Part shown: positions 5,258-22,646 of the stretch, piece after piece | Layout of the letters: each line of letters begins with the position of its first letter | How positions within the stretch are numbered: the first letter of the stretch is position 1 | Source: an uncultured Candidatus Saccharibacteria bacterium | Lineage (GTDB): Bacteria; Patescibacteriota; Minisyncoccia; Phycocordibacterales; CSBR16-119 | Reading direction: 5' to 3' | DNA: 64,000 bases | Assembly (NCBI GenBank): GCA_964355515.1 | Contig: CAYHDV010000001.1 | Span: forward strand, 26,544 to 90,543 | Notes under the pieces: model-generated | Database searches by the model: none | Told to the model about the DNA's origin: nothing | What the model saw: the letters and a program-made list of their open reading frames with translations, nothing else | Made by a program: the position numbers and the translations under genes

Positions 5258-6643
5258 ATGTCAGAAAAAAACCGAAAAGGGCGTATCCCCCCACATAGCT
5301 TAGAATCAGAGCAAGCAGTACTTGGAGCTATTATGCTTCGGGCAGATGCTATTCATGAGATTATTGACGTGCTTGTCTCTCAAGCTTTTTATAGTGAAAA
5401 ACACCGAATGATCTACAAGGCGATGCTGGACTTGGCAACAAAGTCAGAGCCAATTGATCTTGTTTCTATTTCTGCAAAACTTGAAGAAAAAAAGGAATTA
5501 GAGGCTGTTGGAGGAAGGGGCTACCTTATCGACCTCACAAACACCGTGCCCGCAGCTACAAATGTAAAGCATTATGGAAATATTGTTGAGAAAAAGTTCC
5601 TCCTCCGATCCCTTATCAATGCCGCGGATACTATTGTTGAGCTTGGGTTTAACGATGATGCCACAGAGGTTGGAGATATTCTTGATATGGCCGAGAAACA
5701 AATTTTCTCTATTACAGGAAATCCAAAGGGGGCAAAATTTATTTCCATAAAAGAATCTCTGAAAGAAGCTTGGGAGCAATTAGAAAAACTTCAAGAAACA
5801 AAAGATGGAATCCGTGGAGTACCTACTGGCTACCCTGCATTGGACAACATGCTCTCTGGCCTTCAGAAATCAGATCTAATTATTCTTGCGGCAAGACCAT
5901 CTATGGGAAAGACCACTCTAGCACTCGACATGGCTCGCCATGCTGCCACAAAACACAATATACCAGTAGCTATTTTCTCGCTCGAAATGAGTGCAAACCA
6001 GCTCACACAGAGAATGCTTGCAGCAGAATCGCAAGTAAATGCTTGGAACCTTCGAACAGGAAAAATTAAAAAAGAGCAAGACTTTGAGCAAATAAGAGAT
6101 GCTCTGGATATTCTTTCTCGAGCTCCAATATACATAGACGATATGGCAGGAAACTCTATCACAAAGATGAAAGCTGTTTGTCGAAGATTAAAATCAGAAC
6201 ATGGGCTTGGGCTTATAGTTGTTGACTACCTACAGCTGATGTCCGCAGGAAAAAATTATGATTCCATGGTAAACCAAGTAACTGAAATTTCTCGATCTCT
6301 AAAGGCTCTTGCTCGAGAGATAGATGCTCCAGTACTTGCTCTGTCACAGCTATCCCGAGCGGTGGAATCTCGTGGAGGAAAGCCTAGACTATCTGACCTT
6401 CGAGACTCTGGATCTATCGAGCAAGACGCCGATGTGGTGATGTTTATTCACAGAGAAGACCGAATGGGATCTCGTTCTGATGATGAAAATACAGGTATGG
6501 CAGAAATCCTAATAGAAAAACACCGAAATGGACCCGTTGGAAAAGTGGATCTCTTCTTCGATGAGAAAACAAGTACATTTCTTTCTCTCGAAAAGAGTGA
6601 CATGGCGGCCTTTGTATCTGGTGGCTCACTTGATGATTTTTAA
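5258..6643 (+). CDS. dnaB: Replicative DNA helicase DnaB
   Basis: 461 aa. N-terminus LESEQAVLGAIML, Walker A AARPSMGKTT, and RecA-like C-terminal domain. Confidence 0.9.
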   Translation: MSEKNRKGRIPPHSLESEQAVLGAIMLRADAIHEIIDVLVSQAFYSEKHRMIYKAMLDLATKSEPIDLVSISAKLEEKKELEAVGGRGYLIDLTNTVPAATNVKHYGNIVEKKFLLRSLINAADTIVELGFNDDATEVGDILDMAEKQIFSITGNPKGAKFISIKESLKEAWEQLEKLQETKDGIRGVPTGYPALDNMLSGLQKSDLIILAARPSMGKTTLALDMARHAATKHNIPVAIFSLEMSANQLTQRMLAAESQVNAWNLRTGKIKKEQDFEQIRDALDILSRAPIYIDDMAGNSITKMKAVCRRLKSEHGLGLIVVDYLQLMSAGKNYDSMVNQVTEISRSLKALAREIDAPVLALSQLSRAVESRGGKPRLSDLRDSGSIEQDADVVMFIHREDRMGSRSDDENTGMAEILIEKHRNGPVGKVDLFFDEKTSTFLSLEKSDMAAFVSGGSLDDF

Positions 6644-10318: not shown

Positions 10319-11005
10319 ATGAAAATTCATAGATTTTTTGTCGATTTGCCATATGAGACGGACGAGCTGATTATTTCTGACAAAGAATTGGTTCACCAAA
10401 TGAATAATGTACTCAAACTCAAATCTGGAGAATTTGTAGAGCTTTTTGATGGTTCAGGTAGTGCCTTTCTAGGTGAAATAAGTAGTGTCTCAAAAAAATC
10501 TGTAGAAATTAAAAATGGGGAAATTAAAAAAGTGGCAGATACTCGAAAAGAAATTTTCGCCTATATTCCCCTTCTACGCCGAACAAACACAGAACTTATA
10601 ATCCAAAAACTCACCGAGCTTGGAATCAAAAATATAATCCCCATCAAAACAGATAGAACAATCAAGTCCGATGTGAATCAAGAGAGGCTAAAGAAAATCT
10701 CGATAGAAGCCACCGAACAATCCGGACAATACTTCCTCACCAATATCAGCGAACCACTCAAGCTCAAAGAGGCTCTCGAGAGAGCCTCTGGTACAGATAT
10801 ATTTGTTCTAGATATGGGAAATGATTCTTTCCGAAACCATAAGCGCACCTATCCTCTATCATTTTTTGTTGGGCCTGAAGGTGGCTGGACAGATGAAGAG
10901 CGAGAGCTGTTTAGAAACTCTGGCGCAAAGATCGTAACACTCACAGACACTGTCCTACGAGGAGAAACTGCTGTTATCCTCGCGGGTTATGAAGCTCTTT
11001 ATTAA
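10319..11005 (+). CDS. rsmE: 16S rRNA (uracil1498-N3)-methyltransferase RsmE
   Basis: 228 aa. MKIHRFFVD N-terminus and C-terminal SPOUT domain (FFVGPEGGWTDEE). Confidence 0.8.
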   Translation: MKIHRFFVDLPYETDELIISDKELVHQMNNVLKLKSGEFVELFDGSGSAFLGEISSVSKKSVEIKNGEIKKVADTRKEIFAYIPLLRRTNTELIIQKLTELGIKNIIPIKTDRTIKSDVNQERLKKISIEATEQSGQYFLTNISEPLKLKEALERASGTDIFVLDMGNDSFRNHKRTYPLSFFVGPEGGWTDEERELFRNSGAKIVTLTDTVLRGETAVILAGYEALY

Positions 11006-11049
11006 AAACAAAAAACTCCCACAATAATCGTGAGAGAAAAATATCTTGT

Positions 11050-11155
11050 ATCGAAAAGCAAGAAACCAGTTGCTAGAATTCCAGTCATTGGACCAATTCT
11101 AGAGATTCACCTTGCGGTCATCCCAGTCCTCCCAAAGTTCGGGAACCTTGGACGC
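11050..11155 (-). repeat. DGR-like template repeat (TR) candidate: 106-nt intergenic copy
   Basis: 87% identical to 11525-11630. All 14 mismatches are T on the plus strand of this copy, meaning A on the minus (sense) strand. The other 92 positions are identical. Confidence 0.75.
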
Positions 11156-11524
11156 GGGAACTTTTGTATATCTATCCATCTGTACCACCGGTGCCAGATT
11201 CCTCCAACACCTGAATATTATTTGGGATCAAGAATCCACCAGATAGATATACCGACATATATTTTTTTGAAAGAATGCAATACAACCACGCTGTGATAAG
11301 CCCTGCCGACGCCAAGGCTTTGGCACGCAAACAGTGACCGACCATATTCTGGGTTGCAAGATTCTGATCGCAGGATGTAAAGCCTTGACCGTACATGCAT
11401 TACCACAATCATCCTTCAGTATATACAAAAAGACCCCTTGATTCAAATGCACAAAGTGCAAAGAACCAAAGGGTCGAAGTTAAAAAGCAACCAAGCAAAG
11501 ATTCAAAAGATCAAAGTTCAGTCG

Positions 11525-11630
11525 CGAAAAGCAAGAAACCAGCCGCTAGAATCCCAGCCACGGGACCAATCCTAGAGATCCACCCTGCGGCCAACCCAGT
11601 CCCCCCAAAGCCCGGGAACCTTGGACGCGG
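11525..11630 (-). repeat. DGR-like variable repeat (VR) candidate spanning the stop codon (11572-11574) of lipoprotein gene 11572..12027
   Basis: Direct repeat of 11050-11155. It carries N substitutions only where the TR has A in the sense strand. The TR frame is rich in AAT/AAC/GAC codons. Confidence 0.75.
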
Positions 11631-12027
11631 TGGTTTTAGAACCAAGTGCGATGATACTCATTTCGCGTTGCAATCTGGGATATTCGTTTCCCAGGGTGAG
11701 AAGTTCGCGAGCGGTTGCTGGCCGAAGTCCACGGACAACCATCTGTGCCACAATATCTTCAGAAGACATTTTTCGGTTAAAGTTGAGTAGGATGGCTTCA
11801 CGGGTCATGATTGTGTCTTTCTTGTCATCTCCACCTTTTTGGATAAAGGCATTGTTGGAAATACCAGAATTGACCAAGTCATAGTTTCCCATGGTCACAA
11901 GGTCATCAATTGACTTGGAATAGTCAATTATGACATTCATCCGTAATTCATCGATTTGGTTTCCTCCACCACAAGATGAGAGGATTGCCATTGCTGGCAA
12001 GAGGGCAAAAAGTGTTAGCTTTTTCAT
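11572..12027 (-). CDS. Small lipoprotein; putative DGR target protein (C-terminal 18 aa encoded by the VR)
   Basis: 151 aa with signal peptide and lipobox (AILSSC). C-terminus ...ASKVPGLWGDWVGRRVDL lies within the repeat. The TAG stop sits in the middle of the repeat. Confidence 0.7.
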   Translation of the reverse strand: MKKLTLFALLPAMAILSSCGGGNQIDELRMNVIIDYSKSIDDLVTMGNYDLVNSGISNNAFIQKGGDDKKDTIMTREAILLNFNRKMSSEDIVAQMVVRGLRPATARELLTLGNEYPRLQREMSIIALGSKTTASKVPGLWGDWVGRRVDL

Positions 12028-12046
12028 AATATTCGGTTTTGAAGTT

Positions 12047-12064
12047 TAAGTATATGTTAACATA
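12047..12064. promoter_or_regulatory. Perfect 18-bp palindrome GTATATGTTAACATATAC, 20 nt upstream of the lipoprotein start; operator candidate
   Basis: Exact inverted repeat overlapping the expected RBS/-10 region of gene 11572..12027. Confidence 0.4.
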
Positions 12065-12192
12065 TACGGGTATCTTTGTCAAGGATTATTGTGATGGCAT
12101 GTATTATATGTAGAAATGACAAGTTTTAGAACTTGCAAACCTTTCGACACTTGAGCTTTAACTTTTAAAATATTCACGGTTTTTTTGATTAG

Positions 12193-12245
12193 TGCGTAGC
12201 GTCTTTGCGAGGAGCTTGGCGACAAAGCAATCCAGGGTTCAATCA
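12193..12245. repeat. Short dispersed repeat, about 50 bp, copy A
   Basis: gcgtagcgtctttgcgaggagcttggcgacaaagcaatccagg matches the reverse complement of 20683-20735. Degenerate relatives at about 11297-11335, 12355-12400 and 12420-12478. Confidence 0.7.
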
Positions 12246-12519
12246 CCTTATTGTGAATGGGGTGCGTTTCAGTGTCCATAGATCCTGAACTAAATTCAGG
12301 ATGACAGGTATATTGTATAGTGTTGCCCATTTAGATCCTGAAATGTACCCTCACTTCGCTGTGGAGTACTAAGTCCTGGATTGCTTCGTGCCTCGCAATG
12401 ACGATACGTTTTATGAGTACTCTCTGGATTGATTCATGCCTCACTTCTTCGCCAAGGCTACGAAAGTGCACGGCGCAATGACAAAATTGTTTGCATGTGA
12501 CAAGCATTACTTTTAGATT

Positions 12520-13290
12520 TTAATCTTTCAGAAAAATTTTCTTTACTTGCTCAGTAGAAATCACTCTTGCATCCTCTACTTTATATTCTCCGATAGAAAT
12601 TCTCCGGAGAGCAGAAAGTGTAGCCGGTACGCCAAGTCTACTGCCTAGCTCGCGAGCAAGTGATCGAATATACGTCCCAGAACCAACATCAAAAGTGACC
12701 CTCAGAGCGACCTCACCCCAGCCCTGCCTGCCGGCAGGCAGGCCTCTCCTTATCAATGAGAGGGGGCTAGCCGATGACCCTTCTCGCTTCGAGTCGTTTC
12801 TTTTAATTTCTTTTAACTTTACCGAATGTACAAGCATTGTCTTTATCGGTACTTCGACCTCTTGGTCTTTGCGGGCATATTTGTACAAAGCCTTTCCATC
12901 TTTTTTGATAGCTGAATACACAGGCACAGCTATTTTTTGCTCACCTAGTAGAGTTTCTAATTTTTCCTTTATCTCTTTGTCTTCTAGAGCCGAAGCGTCC
13001 GCTTCCGCAATCACTTCCCCTTCCAAATCATCTGTTGTGGTTTGTTTACCCAACAGAATTTCTGCTTCATAGACTTTTGATTTGCCAATTAGCCCTGTGA
13101 GCTCCTTTGTCATCTTCCCCACACCCACGAGGATTAGTCCTGTAGCCCTCGGGTCGAGCGTCCCTGCGTGACCTATTTTGATTTTCGCATGTCCGGCTTC
13201 TTTGTACTCTCGTTTCAAAAAACGAATCACATCATACGATGTCACGCCAAATGGCTTGTCTATCAAAAGTAATTCCCCTTCTGGATTCAT
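12520..13290 (-). CDS. truB: tRNA pseudouridine(55) synthase TruB, carrying an in-frame roughly 30-aa insertion that contains a GC-rich palindrome
   Basis: 256 aa. LIDKPFGVTSYDVI, catalytic HAGTLDP, C-terminal GTYIRSLARELG. The insertion encodes ...SPLSLIRRGLPAGRQGWGEV. Confidence 0.85.
   Translation of the reverse strand: MNPEGELLLIDKPFGVTSYDVIRFLKREYKEAGHAKIKIGHAGTLDPRATGLILVGVGKMTKELTGLIGKSKVYEAEILLGKQTTTDDLEGEVIAEADASALEDKEIKEKLETLLGEQKIAVPVYSAIKKDGKALYKYARKDQEVEVPIKTMLVHSVKLKEIKRNDSKREGSSASPLSLIRRGLPAGRQGWGEVALRVTFDVGSGTYIRSLARELGSRLGVPATLSALRRISIGEYKVEDARVISTEQVKKIFLKD
12722..12752. repeat. GC-rich perfect palindrome CCTGCCTGCCGGCAGGCAGG embedded in-frame in truB
   Basis: Near-identical palindrome CCTGCCTGCCGGACAGGCAGG at 23519-23540 inside grpE. 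Confidence 0.7.
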
Positions 13291-20362: not shown

Positions 20363-20632
20363 ATGAACTTTGAACTTATTTTTGGATCTATTACTTTTGT
20401 GAGTTCGTTAGTAATGGCAAGTGTAGGACTACCATCACAAATTTGGAAAAACTATCGAACAAAGACTTCTGGCATAGCTTTGATGTTGATAATCCTCACT
20501 CTTGCGGTATATCTTCCAAGAACAGTATATACTGCCATACGCCAAGATTATTATATACTAATACCAGATTTGGTTGGTCTCGTATGTTCAATTGTAATAC
20601 TTATTCAACATTTTCTTTACAAAAAGCATTAA
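20363..20632 (+). CDS. PQ-loop/SemiSWEET-like small membrane protein
   Basis: 89 aa, three TM segments, with an LPSQIWKNYRTKT segment resembling the PQ-loop motif. Confidence 0.5.
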   Translation: MNFELIFGSITFVSSLVMASVGLPSQIWKNYRTKTSGIALMLIILTLAVYLPRTVYTAIRQDYYILIPDLVGLVCSIVILIQHFLYKKH

Positions 20633-20682
20633 CCTTTGTTGGTGCTTTTTTATTTCCAGTGATAAAAATTTCGTGAGAAATC

Positions 20683-20735
20683 CTGGATTGCCACGTCGCC
20701 AAGCTCCTCGCAAAGACGCTACGTGCGGTGATTAA
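20683..20735. repeat. Short dispersed repeat, copy B, immediately 3' of dnaK
   Basis: Reverse complement matches 12193-12245 (about 90% identity). Confidence 0.7.
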
Positions 20736-20741
20736 GAGCGA

Positions 20742-22646
20742 TTACTTCTCTTCTTCTTTATCCTCACTCACCACCTCAGCCTCCTGAGTAGTATCAGCAG
20801 AACCTGCTTCTGTTCCAGCGCCAGCATTTGACGCTTGTGCTTTCTTTGCTAGGTGCTCATGGATCTTTTGCATTTCAGTACTTAGCTCTTCTGTAGCTTT
20901 TTTAATATCGTCATGATTTGCATCTGGAAGCTCTTTTACTTTCTTTAGAGACTCCACTTTATCTTGAATACCCTTTTTTACATCCTCGGGTGCATCATCT
21001 CCGGCGTCCTTGATGGCTTTTTCTGCTGCGAATACTGTCATGTCCGCAGTGTTACGAATCTCAGCAGCTTCTTTTTTCTTCTTATCTCCTTCTGCATGAA
21101 TCTCAGCGTCCTTCTTCATTTTTTCAATATCAGCATCGGTAAGTCCTGAAGAAGCTTCAATTCTGATTGACTGCTCTTTACCTGAAGTATTGTCCTTGGC
21201 TTTTACATTTAGGATTCCGTTTGCATCCACATCAAATGACACCTCAATCTGAGGAACTCCTCGTGGTGCTGGTGGAATACCATCTAGGACAAATCGTCCT
21301 AGTGATTTATTGTCAGAGGCCATTGGTCGCTCACCCTGTACGATATGAATCTCTGTTGAAGTCTGGTTGTCAGCAGCTGTAGAGAATACTTGTGACTTTG
21401 TAGCTGGGATTGTGGTGTTTCTCTCGATCAGCTTTGTAGCCACTCCTCCTAGAGTCTCAATACCAAGTGATAGAGGGATCACGTCTAGTAGAAGCACGTC
21501 TTTTACATCTCCCTGCAACACTCCTCCCTGCACAGCAGCACCAAGTGCCACCACTTCATCTGGGTTAATAGATTTGTTTGGTTCTTTACCAAATAGATTC
21601 TTCACCGCTTCTATAATAGCTGGCATTCGAGTTTGCCCTCCTACGAGGATCACTTCATTGATATCCGCGATTTTAAATGGAGAAGCCTCTACAGCTCGCT
21701 TTGTAATCTCAATAGACTTCTCAATATATGAGCTTGCTAGTTCTTCGAGTTTTGCTCGAGTAAGCGTCATAACAAGGTGCTTTGGACCATTTGCATCCGA
21801 TGTGACAAATGGGATATTGATTTCTGTTTCTGTTGTAGTGGAGAGTTCATGCTTTGCTTTTTCTGCTGACTCGTCTAGTCTTTGTAGTGCGAGAGCATCC
21901 TTTCGTAAATCAATACCATCTGTGTTTTTGAATTGTTCTGCGATCCAGTTGATGATGGCTTGGTCGATATCTCGTCCTCCCATGTGTGAATCTCCATCAG
22001 TAGACTTCACCTCGATAGTATCTTCTGACACCTCGAGCACAGATACGTCAAATGTTCCTCCTCCGAAGTCAAACACCACCACTGTCTCATCTTTCTTTTT
22101 GTTAAATCCATATGCAAGAGCTGCCGCTGTAGGCTCGTTGATAATTCGCTTTACATCTAGTCCAGCGATTTGTCCGGCGTCTTTTGTGGCTTGTCGTTGT
22201 GCATCATCGAAGTACGCAGGTACGGTGATAACTGCTTCAGTTATGGGGTAACCGAGCTTTGCTTCAGCATCTGCTTTGATCTTTGAGAGAATCATCGCAG
22301 AAACTTCTTCTGGTCGGTAGTTTTTGTCGGCAAGCTTTACCTCCACCCCACCTGTAGACCCCTTTTCGATTCCGTATGATACGATGGCTTTTTCTTTTGC
22401 CACAATTGCATCATCGTACCTATGACCCATGAGCCTTTTCACACCGTAGATGGTATTTGTGGGGTTTGTCACCGCTTGGCGCTTGGCTACAAGTCCAGCA
22501 AGTCTCTCACCTGCTTTGTTTATAGCCACAACAGATGGAGTTGTACGCGCTCCTTCTTTGTTTTCTATAATTACTGGTTGCCCTCCTTCAATAACTGCGA
22601 AGGCAGAGTTTGTTGTTCCTAAATCTATTCCTAGTATTTTTGACAT
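20742..22646 (-). CDS. dnaK: Chaperone DnaK (Hsp70)
   Basis: 634 aa. [18 protein letters not shown], and acidic C-terminal tail. Confidence 0.95.

Follow-up and report, generated by a model that had tools for sequence, protein, structure and literature searches.

Probable CGTC-tagged REP-like elements beside truB and dnaK in a Patescibacteria genome

The stretch of DNA analyzed here (64,000 nucleotides (nt) of contig CAYHDV010000001.1 from an uncultured Patescibacteria bacterium, called the window in the following) contains a cluster of short repeats in the spacer between truB and the target gene of a diversity-generating retroelement (DGR). Judged from its sequence, this cluster (12195-12482) very probably belongs to the CGTC-tagged superfamily of repetitive extragenic palindromic (REP)-like elements, together with a copy located 3′ of dnaK and two ATCCTGAA hairpins. 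REP-like elements of this superfamily are short, non-coding, and non-autonomous; each has a CGTC or TGTC head that stays unpaired, a stem usually beginning with AT, and a C-rich tail of a few bases. It is the combination of a CGTC/TGTC head, an AT stem, a CCA tail, the arrangement in inverted pairs, and the position 3′ of genes that leads to the assignment to the CGTC-tagged superfamily.

Arms and hairpins in the window

The longest inverted repeat of the window is formed by 12195-12239 and 20679-20723 (45 nt in inverted orientation, 91% identity), so that the unit of about 50 bp that a preliminary description had reported to recur inverted after dnaK is confirmed. On the truB side, it contains long arm A, which is of the ATTGCGAG type (12200-12236, + strand; nhmmer E = 3e-9) and consists of the head CGTC (12200-12203), TTTGCGAG, the centre GAGC-TTG-GCGAC, AAA, GCAAT, and the tail CCAGG. 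On the dnaK side, a solo long arm (20682-20718, - strand; nhmmer E = 6e-10) lies between the convergent dnaK and SemiSWEET-like open reading frames (ORFs), at distances of 23 nt from the dnaK stop and 49 nt from the end of the SemiSWEET-like ORF, and no partner arm was found near it. Both long arms have 29 identical bases in common, including the CGTAG that occupies the 5 bases before the arm A head (12195-12199) and is also present in the dnaK-side copy. Since these common bases reach beyond the head, they point to a recent common descent of the two copies within this genome.

The inverted partner of arm A is short arm B (12375-12403, - strand; nhmmer E = 5.5e-8), which reads CGTC ATTGCGAGGCACGAAGCAAT CCAGG on the - strand. 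It is a genuine arm, although shorter than the unit previously placed at about 12355-12400. Unit C (12424-12482, - strand), which is oriented like B and had been described at 12420-12478, is indeed a relative of the arms, but a degenerate one recognized by its alignment to arm B and by weak profile matches. Its halves CTGGATTGaTTCaTGCCTC and CGCAATGAC are kept apart by about 29 inserted bases, and their order is collinear with the model. The first 19 nt show 17/19 identity to arm B (score of 28 vs a background maximum of 25), the last 9 nt are the arm end CGCAATGAC, and the halves taken singly yield two collinear weak nhmmer matches (E = 3.3 and 5.1). On the + strand, the order is thus long arm A, a 138-nt spacer, short arm B, and degenerate arm C.

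The pattern CTGGATTGC-N(4-24)-CCTCGCAAWGAC matches the window at three sites (12201-12235, - strand; 12376-12402 and 20683-20717, + strand) and is absent from 100 shuffles. An nhmmer profile built from IMG/VR copies only recovers the same three arms at the E-values of 3e-9, 5.5e-8, and 6e-10. They read CGTC-TTTGCGAG...GCAAT-CCAGG twice and CGTC-ATTGCGAG...GCAAT-CCAGG once, and the general form of the arm is CGTC-(A/T)TTGCGAG...GCAAT-CCAG. A further relative had been proposed at 11297-11335. Here, only the 10-mer CGCCAAGGCT is in common with 12450-12459, the alignment score of 20 is lower than that of the best unrelated window tiles (22-25), and no nhmmer match was obtained at E <= 100; this candidate and its hairpin were therefore rejected as not significant. 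Because the supposed copy is a chance 10-mer, the claim that related repeats bracket the DGR target gene fails.

The two ATCCTGAA-N5-TTCAGGAT hairpins noticed earlier are real (cores at 852-872 and 12282-12302; 27 nt with their heads, 85% alike) and fold on their own. The truB-side hairpin (12280-12306, - strand), recognized by its fold and by the family pattern, is nested in the A-B spacer and is composed of TGTC, ATCCTGAA, the loop TTTAG, TTCAGGAT, and CT, with a folding energy of -6.3 kcal/mol as DNA alone (z = -3.9). The other hairpin (848-875, + strand; z = -3.0) is composed of TGTC, ATCCTGAA, the loop CTCGT, TTCAGGAT, and CTG. Both have an 8-bp stem, a 5-nt loop, and a tail that reads CTA or CTG. 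Moreover, a AGATCCTGAA half-site (12333-12342, + strand) that is identical to 12280-12289, with ATCCTGAA at 12335, is probably the remnant of a further TGTC hairpin. The enlarged A-B spacer with its TGTC hairpin and half-copy is a nest of elements; alternatively, the hairpin 12280-12306 and arm A might be regarded as a hybrid pair, tail to tail, with 43 nt between them. The TGTC hairpin pattern was found in 30 IMG/VR contigs, often tail-to-tail with other CGTC-type hairpins.

The hairpin at 848-875 occupies the stem III position of a T-box-like leader on the - strand (800-944; Rfam RF00230, 39.9 bits, E ~1e-7, below the gathering score of 93). The T-box sequence of this leader is AAUUGGGGUGGCACCGCGG, its terminator hairpin lies at 772-812, and the ORF downstream of it (247-753, - strand) shows a weak HEPN match only, which is unusual for a T-box.

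Grammar and spread of the family

CGTC-tagged REPs (CGTC-1 to CGTC-4) have been described by Di Nocera, De Gregorio and Rocco (2013, BMC Genomics 14:522; PMC3733652). According to that paper, they include Neisseria dRS3 as well as Rickettsia RPE-4 and RPE-6 and are defined by a CGTC, TGTC, or CCTC head, a stem starting with AT (8-9 bp, of which the first two pairs are A-T), a loop of 4-5 nt, and a CCA tail. The paper also reports that they occur mostly as inverted dimers, commonly heterodimers, with spacers of 20-100 nt that possibly contain small stem-loops, and that they are located shortly behind ORFs whose neighbors are unidirectional or convergent. Unlike GTAG REPs, they are described there as having no dedicated transposase, and the five phyla from which they are reported include none of the candidate phyla radiation (CPR).

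The repeats studied here resemble this description in several respects. The head is CGTC in arms A and B and in the dnaK copy, and TGTC in both hairpins; the three window arms end in GCAAT-CCAGG; the family consists mostly of inverted dimers, is found in several phyla, and has no associated transposase. The cluster is situated between unidirectional genes and the solo arm between convergent genes, both just 3′ of ORFs, and the geometry of the TGTC hairpins fits that of CGTC-2-like elements. On the other hand, the ATTGCGAG-type arm is constructed differently, namely from a 5-bp ATTGC/GCAAT stem around an interior of 12-18 nt with a GC-GNA-GC mini-hairpin, and its stable structure is the dimer and not the single arm. 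Further differences are the tail of the TGTC hairpins, which is CT(A/G) instead of CCA, and the occurrence of the ATTGCGAG-type arm in >12 phyla (among the matches listed), including Patescibacteria, as well as in IMG/VR contigs.

The composition of the family was derived from pattern scans that placed no constraint on the long-arm centre, and the counts given here refer to the matches listed. At further positions that the pattern did not fix, 121 long arms have C (90), T (24), G (6), or A (1) before GTC, and GCAATCC is followed by A in 94, i.e., the tail is CCA. The outer end of a partner, CTCGCAATGAC, occurs within 110 nt of 90 of the 122 long arms. Long arm, spacer, and short arm is the usual order in the genome loci, and the A/B pair of the window is arranged alike; the spacer is variable, with a median of 24 nt (138 nt in the window). 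The ATTGCGAG-type units act as an inverted heterodimer, in which a long and a short arm stand tail to tail with their heads outward.

Structure and covariation, which the preliminary description had suggested as checks, agree with such a dimer: the pair folds, the arms co-vary, and single arms are unfolded. The - strand RNA of 12190-12490 has a predicted folding energy of -97.5 kcal/mol (z = -5.7) in a structure where A pairs with B and the TGTC hairpin branches off to the side, and single ATTGCGAG-type arms fold no better than their shuffles (z = 0 to +1.2). The triplet beside GCAAT is exactly complementary between both arms in 59 of 83 dimers vs about 34 expected (GAA/TTC in 40, GCG/CGC in 12, and GTG/CAC in 6).

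The arm centres show a further regularity. Centres of 3 nt are GNA in 79/86 cases with all four bases seen as N, those of 4 nt are GNNA in 17/22 cases, and those of 5 nt are mostly C-GNA-G, so that with the flanking GC pairs they spell GCGNAGC or GCGNNAGC. This mini-hairpin motif melts at 76.5 °C as DNA vs 39 °C for the RNA r(GCGAAAGC) and occurs in single-strand replication origins and single-strand initiation (ssi) signals (PMC13037366). The likeness to d(GCGNAGC)/d(GCGNNAGC) of ssi signals and phage G4-type origins extends to the free N, as in the stability rule; the mini-hairpin is, however, a structural module and not a repeat family, and the window copies have TTG in the place of GNA. 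By analogy with REP/RAYT and IS200/IS605 substrates, the arm centres may be taken as an indication, though not as proof, that selection acts on the single-stranded DNA form.

REPIN/RAYT systems are characterized by a GTAG-type head and a single-copy RAYT (Y1 transposase) gene that the repeats flank, and their repeat families are bound to lineages and inherited vertically. The present family shares with the REP/REPIN-RAYT systems two inverted units that fold around a spacer into a long hairpin, the absence of target-site duplications, the extragenic position, singletons that resemble decayed dimers, and a likely single-stranded DNA biology. It differs in its head (CGTC/TGTC vs GTAG), in the absence of a RAYT/IS200-like gene from the window and from the surroundings of the 215 listed loci, and in an arm that is nearly identical across phyla. 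A REPIN/RAYT system was thus ruled out by the wrong head and the missing RAYT. In addition, no target-site duplications were detected in 78 complete dimers, where the lengths of direct repeats equal those of a shuffled-partner control, no Y1/IS200-type Pfam families were found among the scanned window ORFs, and clustering of the ORFs around 95 viral matches revealed no family recurrent beside the element.

A link to GIY-YIG (COG2827) proteins was considered and rejected as not significant, with one adjacent case (L183) and one at a distance of 4.7 kb (L108). In the adjacent case, a 240-nt contig of Legionella quateirensis, a COG2827-like ORF (MPTKQPAIYIMANKRNGTIYTGVTSNLIK) begins about 70 nt past a solo long arm; this is the only such adjacency among the 120 genome loci listed.

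In IMG/VR, the pattern scan detected ATTGCGAG-type arms in 95 contigs, with the canonical element CGTCATTGCGAG-CGAAGC-GAAGCAATCCAG, a non-conserved spacer of about 20 nt, and CTGGATTGCTTCG-TCGCTTCGCTC-CTCGCAATGACG. A second, independent pattern that was restricted to the T-variant long arm carried by the window yielded at least 120 genome loci from >12 phyla among the matches listed. The hosts include Alpha-, Beta-, and Gammaproteobacteria, Chloroflexota, Nitrospinota, Synergistota, Calditrichota, Acidobacteriota, Melainabacteria, Bacillota, Bacteroidota, Ignavibacteria, Planctomycetota, Omnitrophota, and Deferribacterota. Phylum labels were taken from record titles and most records are metagenome-assembled genomes (MAGs), so any single assignment could be contamination. 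Four of the listed hosts belong to CPR (Saccharibacteria L119, Vogelbacteria L144, Doudnabacteria L200, and the Patescibacteria MAG L208), and contamination is countered here by contigs of 46-154 kb or a matching low G+C content. Arms are also carried by eight plasmids, none of them with an annotation of the arms, among which one Novosphingobium plasmid has 35 places, and one Sphingomonadales MAG contains at least 10 loci. GenBank phages gave no match to 12190-12490, and a literature search with the repeat as DNA string and as six-frame peptides returned primer coincidences or nothing. What is new is the presence in CPR hosts, the breadth across phyla and viral contigs, and the regular occurrence of the mini-hairpin motif at the arm centre.

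Two variations were seen among these loci. In Thiobacillus and Gallionella (L105, L116, L117, L134, L172, L185, L193), the CGTC dimer forms the middle of an extended inverted repeat, (C)CTAGGGARACGCTGATTAAT ... ATTAATCAG(T/C)G(T/C)TTCCCTAGG, i.e., a larger composite palindromic element. In Saccharibacteria L119 (about 490-700), the partner-arm halves AGATTGCCACGTCGG ... CTCGCAAAGACG are about 110 nt apart. Split arms such as the latter and unit C of the window (about 29 nt) hint that the arm centre is itself an insertion site.

Flanking genes and the neighboring DGR cassette

The repeat-rich spacer is bounded by the truB stop (12520) and the ATG (12027) of the DGR target ORF. truB (12520-13290, - strand; Pfam TruB_N) encodes a protein whose best named relatives are from 'Candidatus Parcubacteria' and 'Paceibacteria', and the target ORF (11572-12027, - strand; 151 aa) lies between the rsmE side and the spacer. 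At the second site, dnaK (20742-22646, - strand; stop codon at 20742-20744) faces the SemiSWEET-like ORF, which ends at 20632. A promoter-like site (TTGACA, 17 nt, TG, TAACAT; 12054-12082, - strand), identified by consensus match only, is situated 27 nt upstream of the target-gene ATG, and the repeat cluster is placed between it and the truB stop. On the - strand, 37 nt separate the truB stop from the cluster and about 115 nt the cluster end from the promoter-like site. A search of 11400-12700 for intrinsic terminators was negative; the hairpin is not followed by a U-run, nor is the repeat element surrounded by a promoter-terminator pair. Apart from one tRNA, the window has no Rfam match at the gathering threshold, and nothing relevant appears in 10900-12700 at E <= 10.

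The G+C content is 45-46% in 12200-12500 vs 31-37% in the flanks and 38% in the 64-kb window. The repeats account for this odd intergenic composition and for the spurious ORFs 12079-12330 and 12331-12507 (- strand). Three contigs of the same organism match the window at 100% identity: two from Logan (ERR3856787), which abut at 12171/12172, and one from ENA (ERZ4201065), which ends at 12197, 3 bases before the CGTC head of arm A (12200). The repeats probably explain these assembly breaks at 12171 and 12197, which fit a repeat or a strong hairpin and are no proof of multiple copies.

In relatives with 66-77% TruB identity, the gene order is CorA, TMEM175, L21, BacA, truB, rsmE, a large ORF, recR, and dnaB. 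Here, truB and rsmE are convergent and overlap (L226-L228) or are separated by 152 nt (L229, L230), 740 nt (L225/L231), or 467 nt (from the gene table only). Neither the target gene nor the template repeat (TR) or variable repeat (VR) of the DGR occurs at this site in any syntenic relative examined, and no arms were found there at E <= 1 in those whose DNA was compared. The segment 11006-12519 between rsmE and truB, which holds TR, VR, target ORF, and repeat cluster, is thus lineage-specific. The idea of an inserted cassette holds to this extent, but the repeats do not bound the cassette.

TR (11052-11157) and VR (11525-11630) are 87% identical, and all differences in their core are a T in TR vs another base in VR on the + strand, i.e., they are adenine-specific on the - strand. 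The 3′ end of the target ORF overlaps VR, and a stop codon stands at the same place in TR and VR, from which it follows that the homology extends 47 nt beyond the end of the ORF. No reverse transcriptase (RT) was recognized in the 64-kb window, in which DnaB is the only long ORF with a YxDD motif and no RVT family is found among the ORFs of >=250 aa. The population variant P0132 (169 aa) has 3 differences in residues 1-135, 8/16 in its last residues, and reads through the stop, a pattern that suggests active diversification by an RT encoded elsewhere.

A homologue of the TR-spacer-VR-target arrangement (64% identity over 818 nt) is present in another Paceibacteria genome (L232:4860-6000; GCA_964469225.1, CAYXYC010000002.1) within a ribosomal-protein operon, between L5 and S8 (VR 5387-5497; TR 5831-5941), again with no RT within 5 kb. 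The RT-less cassette seems to relocate between genomes. Neither this homologous cassette nor the one in L233 has CGTC-type arms, and since the relatives have neither arms nor cassette, the repeats and the DGR mini-cassette are separate passengers at a variable site; the repeats are not part of the DGR cassette. In the window, the cluster lies 5′ of the target gene and not at or just 3′ of VR or TR. Around the L232 cassette, four copies of a different local 28-nt palindrome, TTTCCCCTAGGTCCAACCTAGGGGAAA, were observed (4123, 4440, 4863, 5967).

Other palindromes were noticed in and around truB. TruB contains a 25-aa in-frame insert (12712-12786, - strand; ...SASPLSLIRRGLPAGRQGWG...) that is absent in 13/13 aligned relatives and whose DNA is G+C-rich and palindromic, with a perfect 20-nt palindrome, CCTGCCTGCCGGCAGGCAGG (12723-12742), preceded by a CCTCTC...GAGAGG hairpin. 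Intragenic REPs have been described in the truB genes of several species (PMC3733652). The palindrome CCTGCCTGCCGGCAGGCAGG occurs in 35 IMG/VR contigs (L264-L298; L284 is a further example) with at most 4 copies per contig and unrelated flanks. At L295:515-534, it is located inside what reads as a tRNA D-loop (GGTAGCTCAGTTGGTA|palindrome|GAGCG), and in L265 and L288 it is inside tRNA-like sequence. By its sequence, it looks like another promiscuous mini-palindrome family. The 740-nt truB-rsmE spacer of a relative (L225; JGI 3300043495) contains two similar promoter-like direct repeats (GACTTGACAAA...) and, at 5745-5800, GCCUGUC-AUGAGAUCGUGUCUCAU-CUGAUGA-GUCCGGAAGGAC-GAAA-CAGGC, by eye the core of a type III hammerhead ribozyme, for which Rfam returned no match at the gathering threshold.

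Proposed role and rival explanations

As CGTC-tagged REP-like elements, the units would spread as single-stranded DNA hairpins through a trans-acting enzyme, in analogy to REP/RAYT and IS200/IS605, and would by now be mostly passive in this genome. The spacer of the window dimer would have grown to 138 nt with a TGTC hairpin nested inside it and a further degenerate arm after it, and the dnaK copy would be a solo remnant. In the truB transcript, the A-B pair may form a large 3′ stem-loop before the promoter of the next gene. Because no U-tract follows, this stem-loop could stabilize or insulate the truB message rather than terminate it, and a passive stem-loop in the 3′ untranslated region (UTR) of truB would be the most economical reading.

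Several points weigh against this interpretation. The published stem and loop rule does not describe the ATTGCGAG-type arms, which are no palindromes on their own; they were matched to the superfamily by the grammar described in PMC3733652 and not to one of CGTC-1 to CGTC-4, and the arm strings are absent from its supplements. Both window long arms begin with TTTGC instead of ATTGC, and the window centres are TTG, outside the GNA rule, which would be consistent with decaying copies. Only three to four arms and two hairpins are present within the 64-kb window. No match to IS200 TnpA or a RAYT-like consensus was found by phmmer in 17,770 ORFs from the 215 listed loci and the window, and the covariation between the arms could come from templated copying instead of selection for pairing.

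The preliminary description had proposed a non-coding RNA (ncRNA) or a family of miniature inverted-repeat transposable elements (MITEs). The repeats are dispersed, non-coding, and palindromic and in this broad sense of the MITE/REP kind, but an independent ncRNA gene is unlikely because there is no Rfam match, solo arms exist, and spacers are not conserved. A classical MITE, i.e., a deleted insertion sequence with terminal inverted repeats that is moved by a DDE transposase and leaves target-site duplications, could account for arms that resemble terminal inverted repeats around a variable core, for the Thiobacillus/Gallionella dimers inside a longer inverted repeat (CTAGGGARACGCTGATTAAT...; L105, L116, L117, L172, L185), and for a window segment that is missing from relatives. 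Such an origin is nevertheless very unlikely, considering that the 78 complete dimers listed are as free of target-site duplications as shuffled partners, that no transposase with matching ends is found in the 215 listed loci, that the conserved unpaired head and tail are typical of REPs, and that solo arms are frequent. Slighter still is the chance that the element encodes a structured ncRNA or acts in cis as a regulatory RNA on truB or the DGR target gene. The strong predicted fold of the - strand RNA (z = -5.7), the covariation between the arms, and the TGTC hairpin within a T-box-like leader would suit an RNA, but 10900-12700 has no Rfam match even at E <= 10, the element is not enclosed by a promoter and a terminator, its spacer is not conserved, and the stability of the centre motif is much higher in DNA than in RNA. 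The family is moreover found in both orientations, solo, and in unrelated gene contexts of >12 phyla and viral contigs among the matches listed.

The least probable of the explanations considered, and one largely refuted by the present results, is that the repeats are boundary or recognition elements of the DGR, which would enclose the target gene, bring about its insertion, or direct retrohoming. Cluster and RT-less target, VR, and TR do stand together in one lineage-specific 1.5-kb segment, and the L232 cassette is flanked by copies of its own palindrome, yet the supposed copy between TR and VR is a chance 10-mer, the cluster lies upstream of the target gene whereas DGR recognition elements sit downstream of VR, such arms are missing from the homologous cassettes of L232 and L233, and hundreds of family loci are unrelated to DGRs. 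It is also highly improbable that the arms are single-stranded DNA hairpin sites with a host function, bound by a conserved host or phage factor (e.g., priming signals or gyrase- or IHF-like sites). Such sites would explain the conservation across phyla, with arms of 30+ nt that are near-invariant in >12 of the listed phyla and in viral contigs, and they would agree with the known occurrence of GCGNAGC/GCGNNAGC in single-strand origins and ssi signals (PMC13037366) and with the lack of a dedicated transposase. However, the arms are patchy among genomes, with none in the close relatives examined, solo and degenerate copies resemble decay, and the window centres have no GNA motif. We also know of no factor that binds these arms.

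A more far-reaching proposal, which we regard as doubtful, is that the ATTGCGAG-type heterodimer is a pan-bacterial element that moves horizontally, partly with phages and plasmids, presents a mini-hairpin (GCGNAGC) in each arm on single-stranded DNA, and is copied or used by a machinery that is neither a RAYT nor any known transposase, e.g., a conserved priming or repair factor. If this were true, the Parcubacteria copies would mark its reach into CPR, and it would be a new kind of answer to the 13-year-old question of what mobilizes CGTC elements.

With the assignment to the CGTC-tagged REP-like superfamily, the repeats have little significance for the window itself beyond removing the idea of a repeat-bounded DGR cassette. 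For the family, the assignment would extend CGTC-type REP-like elements to Patescibacteria. An arm that stays near-unchanged over >12 phyla (among the matches listed) and viral contigs and carries a mini-hairpin at its centre sharpens the question of which factor mobilizes or maintains CGTC elements, and the arm profile could be used in phylogenetic-profiling searches for it.

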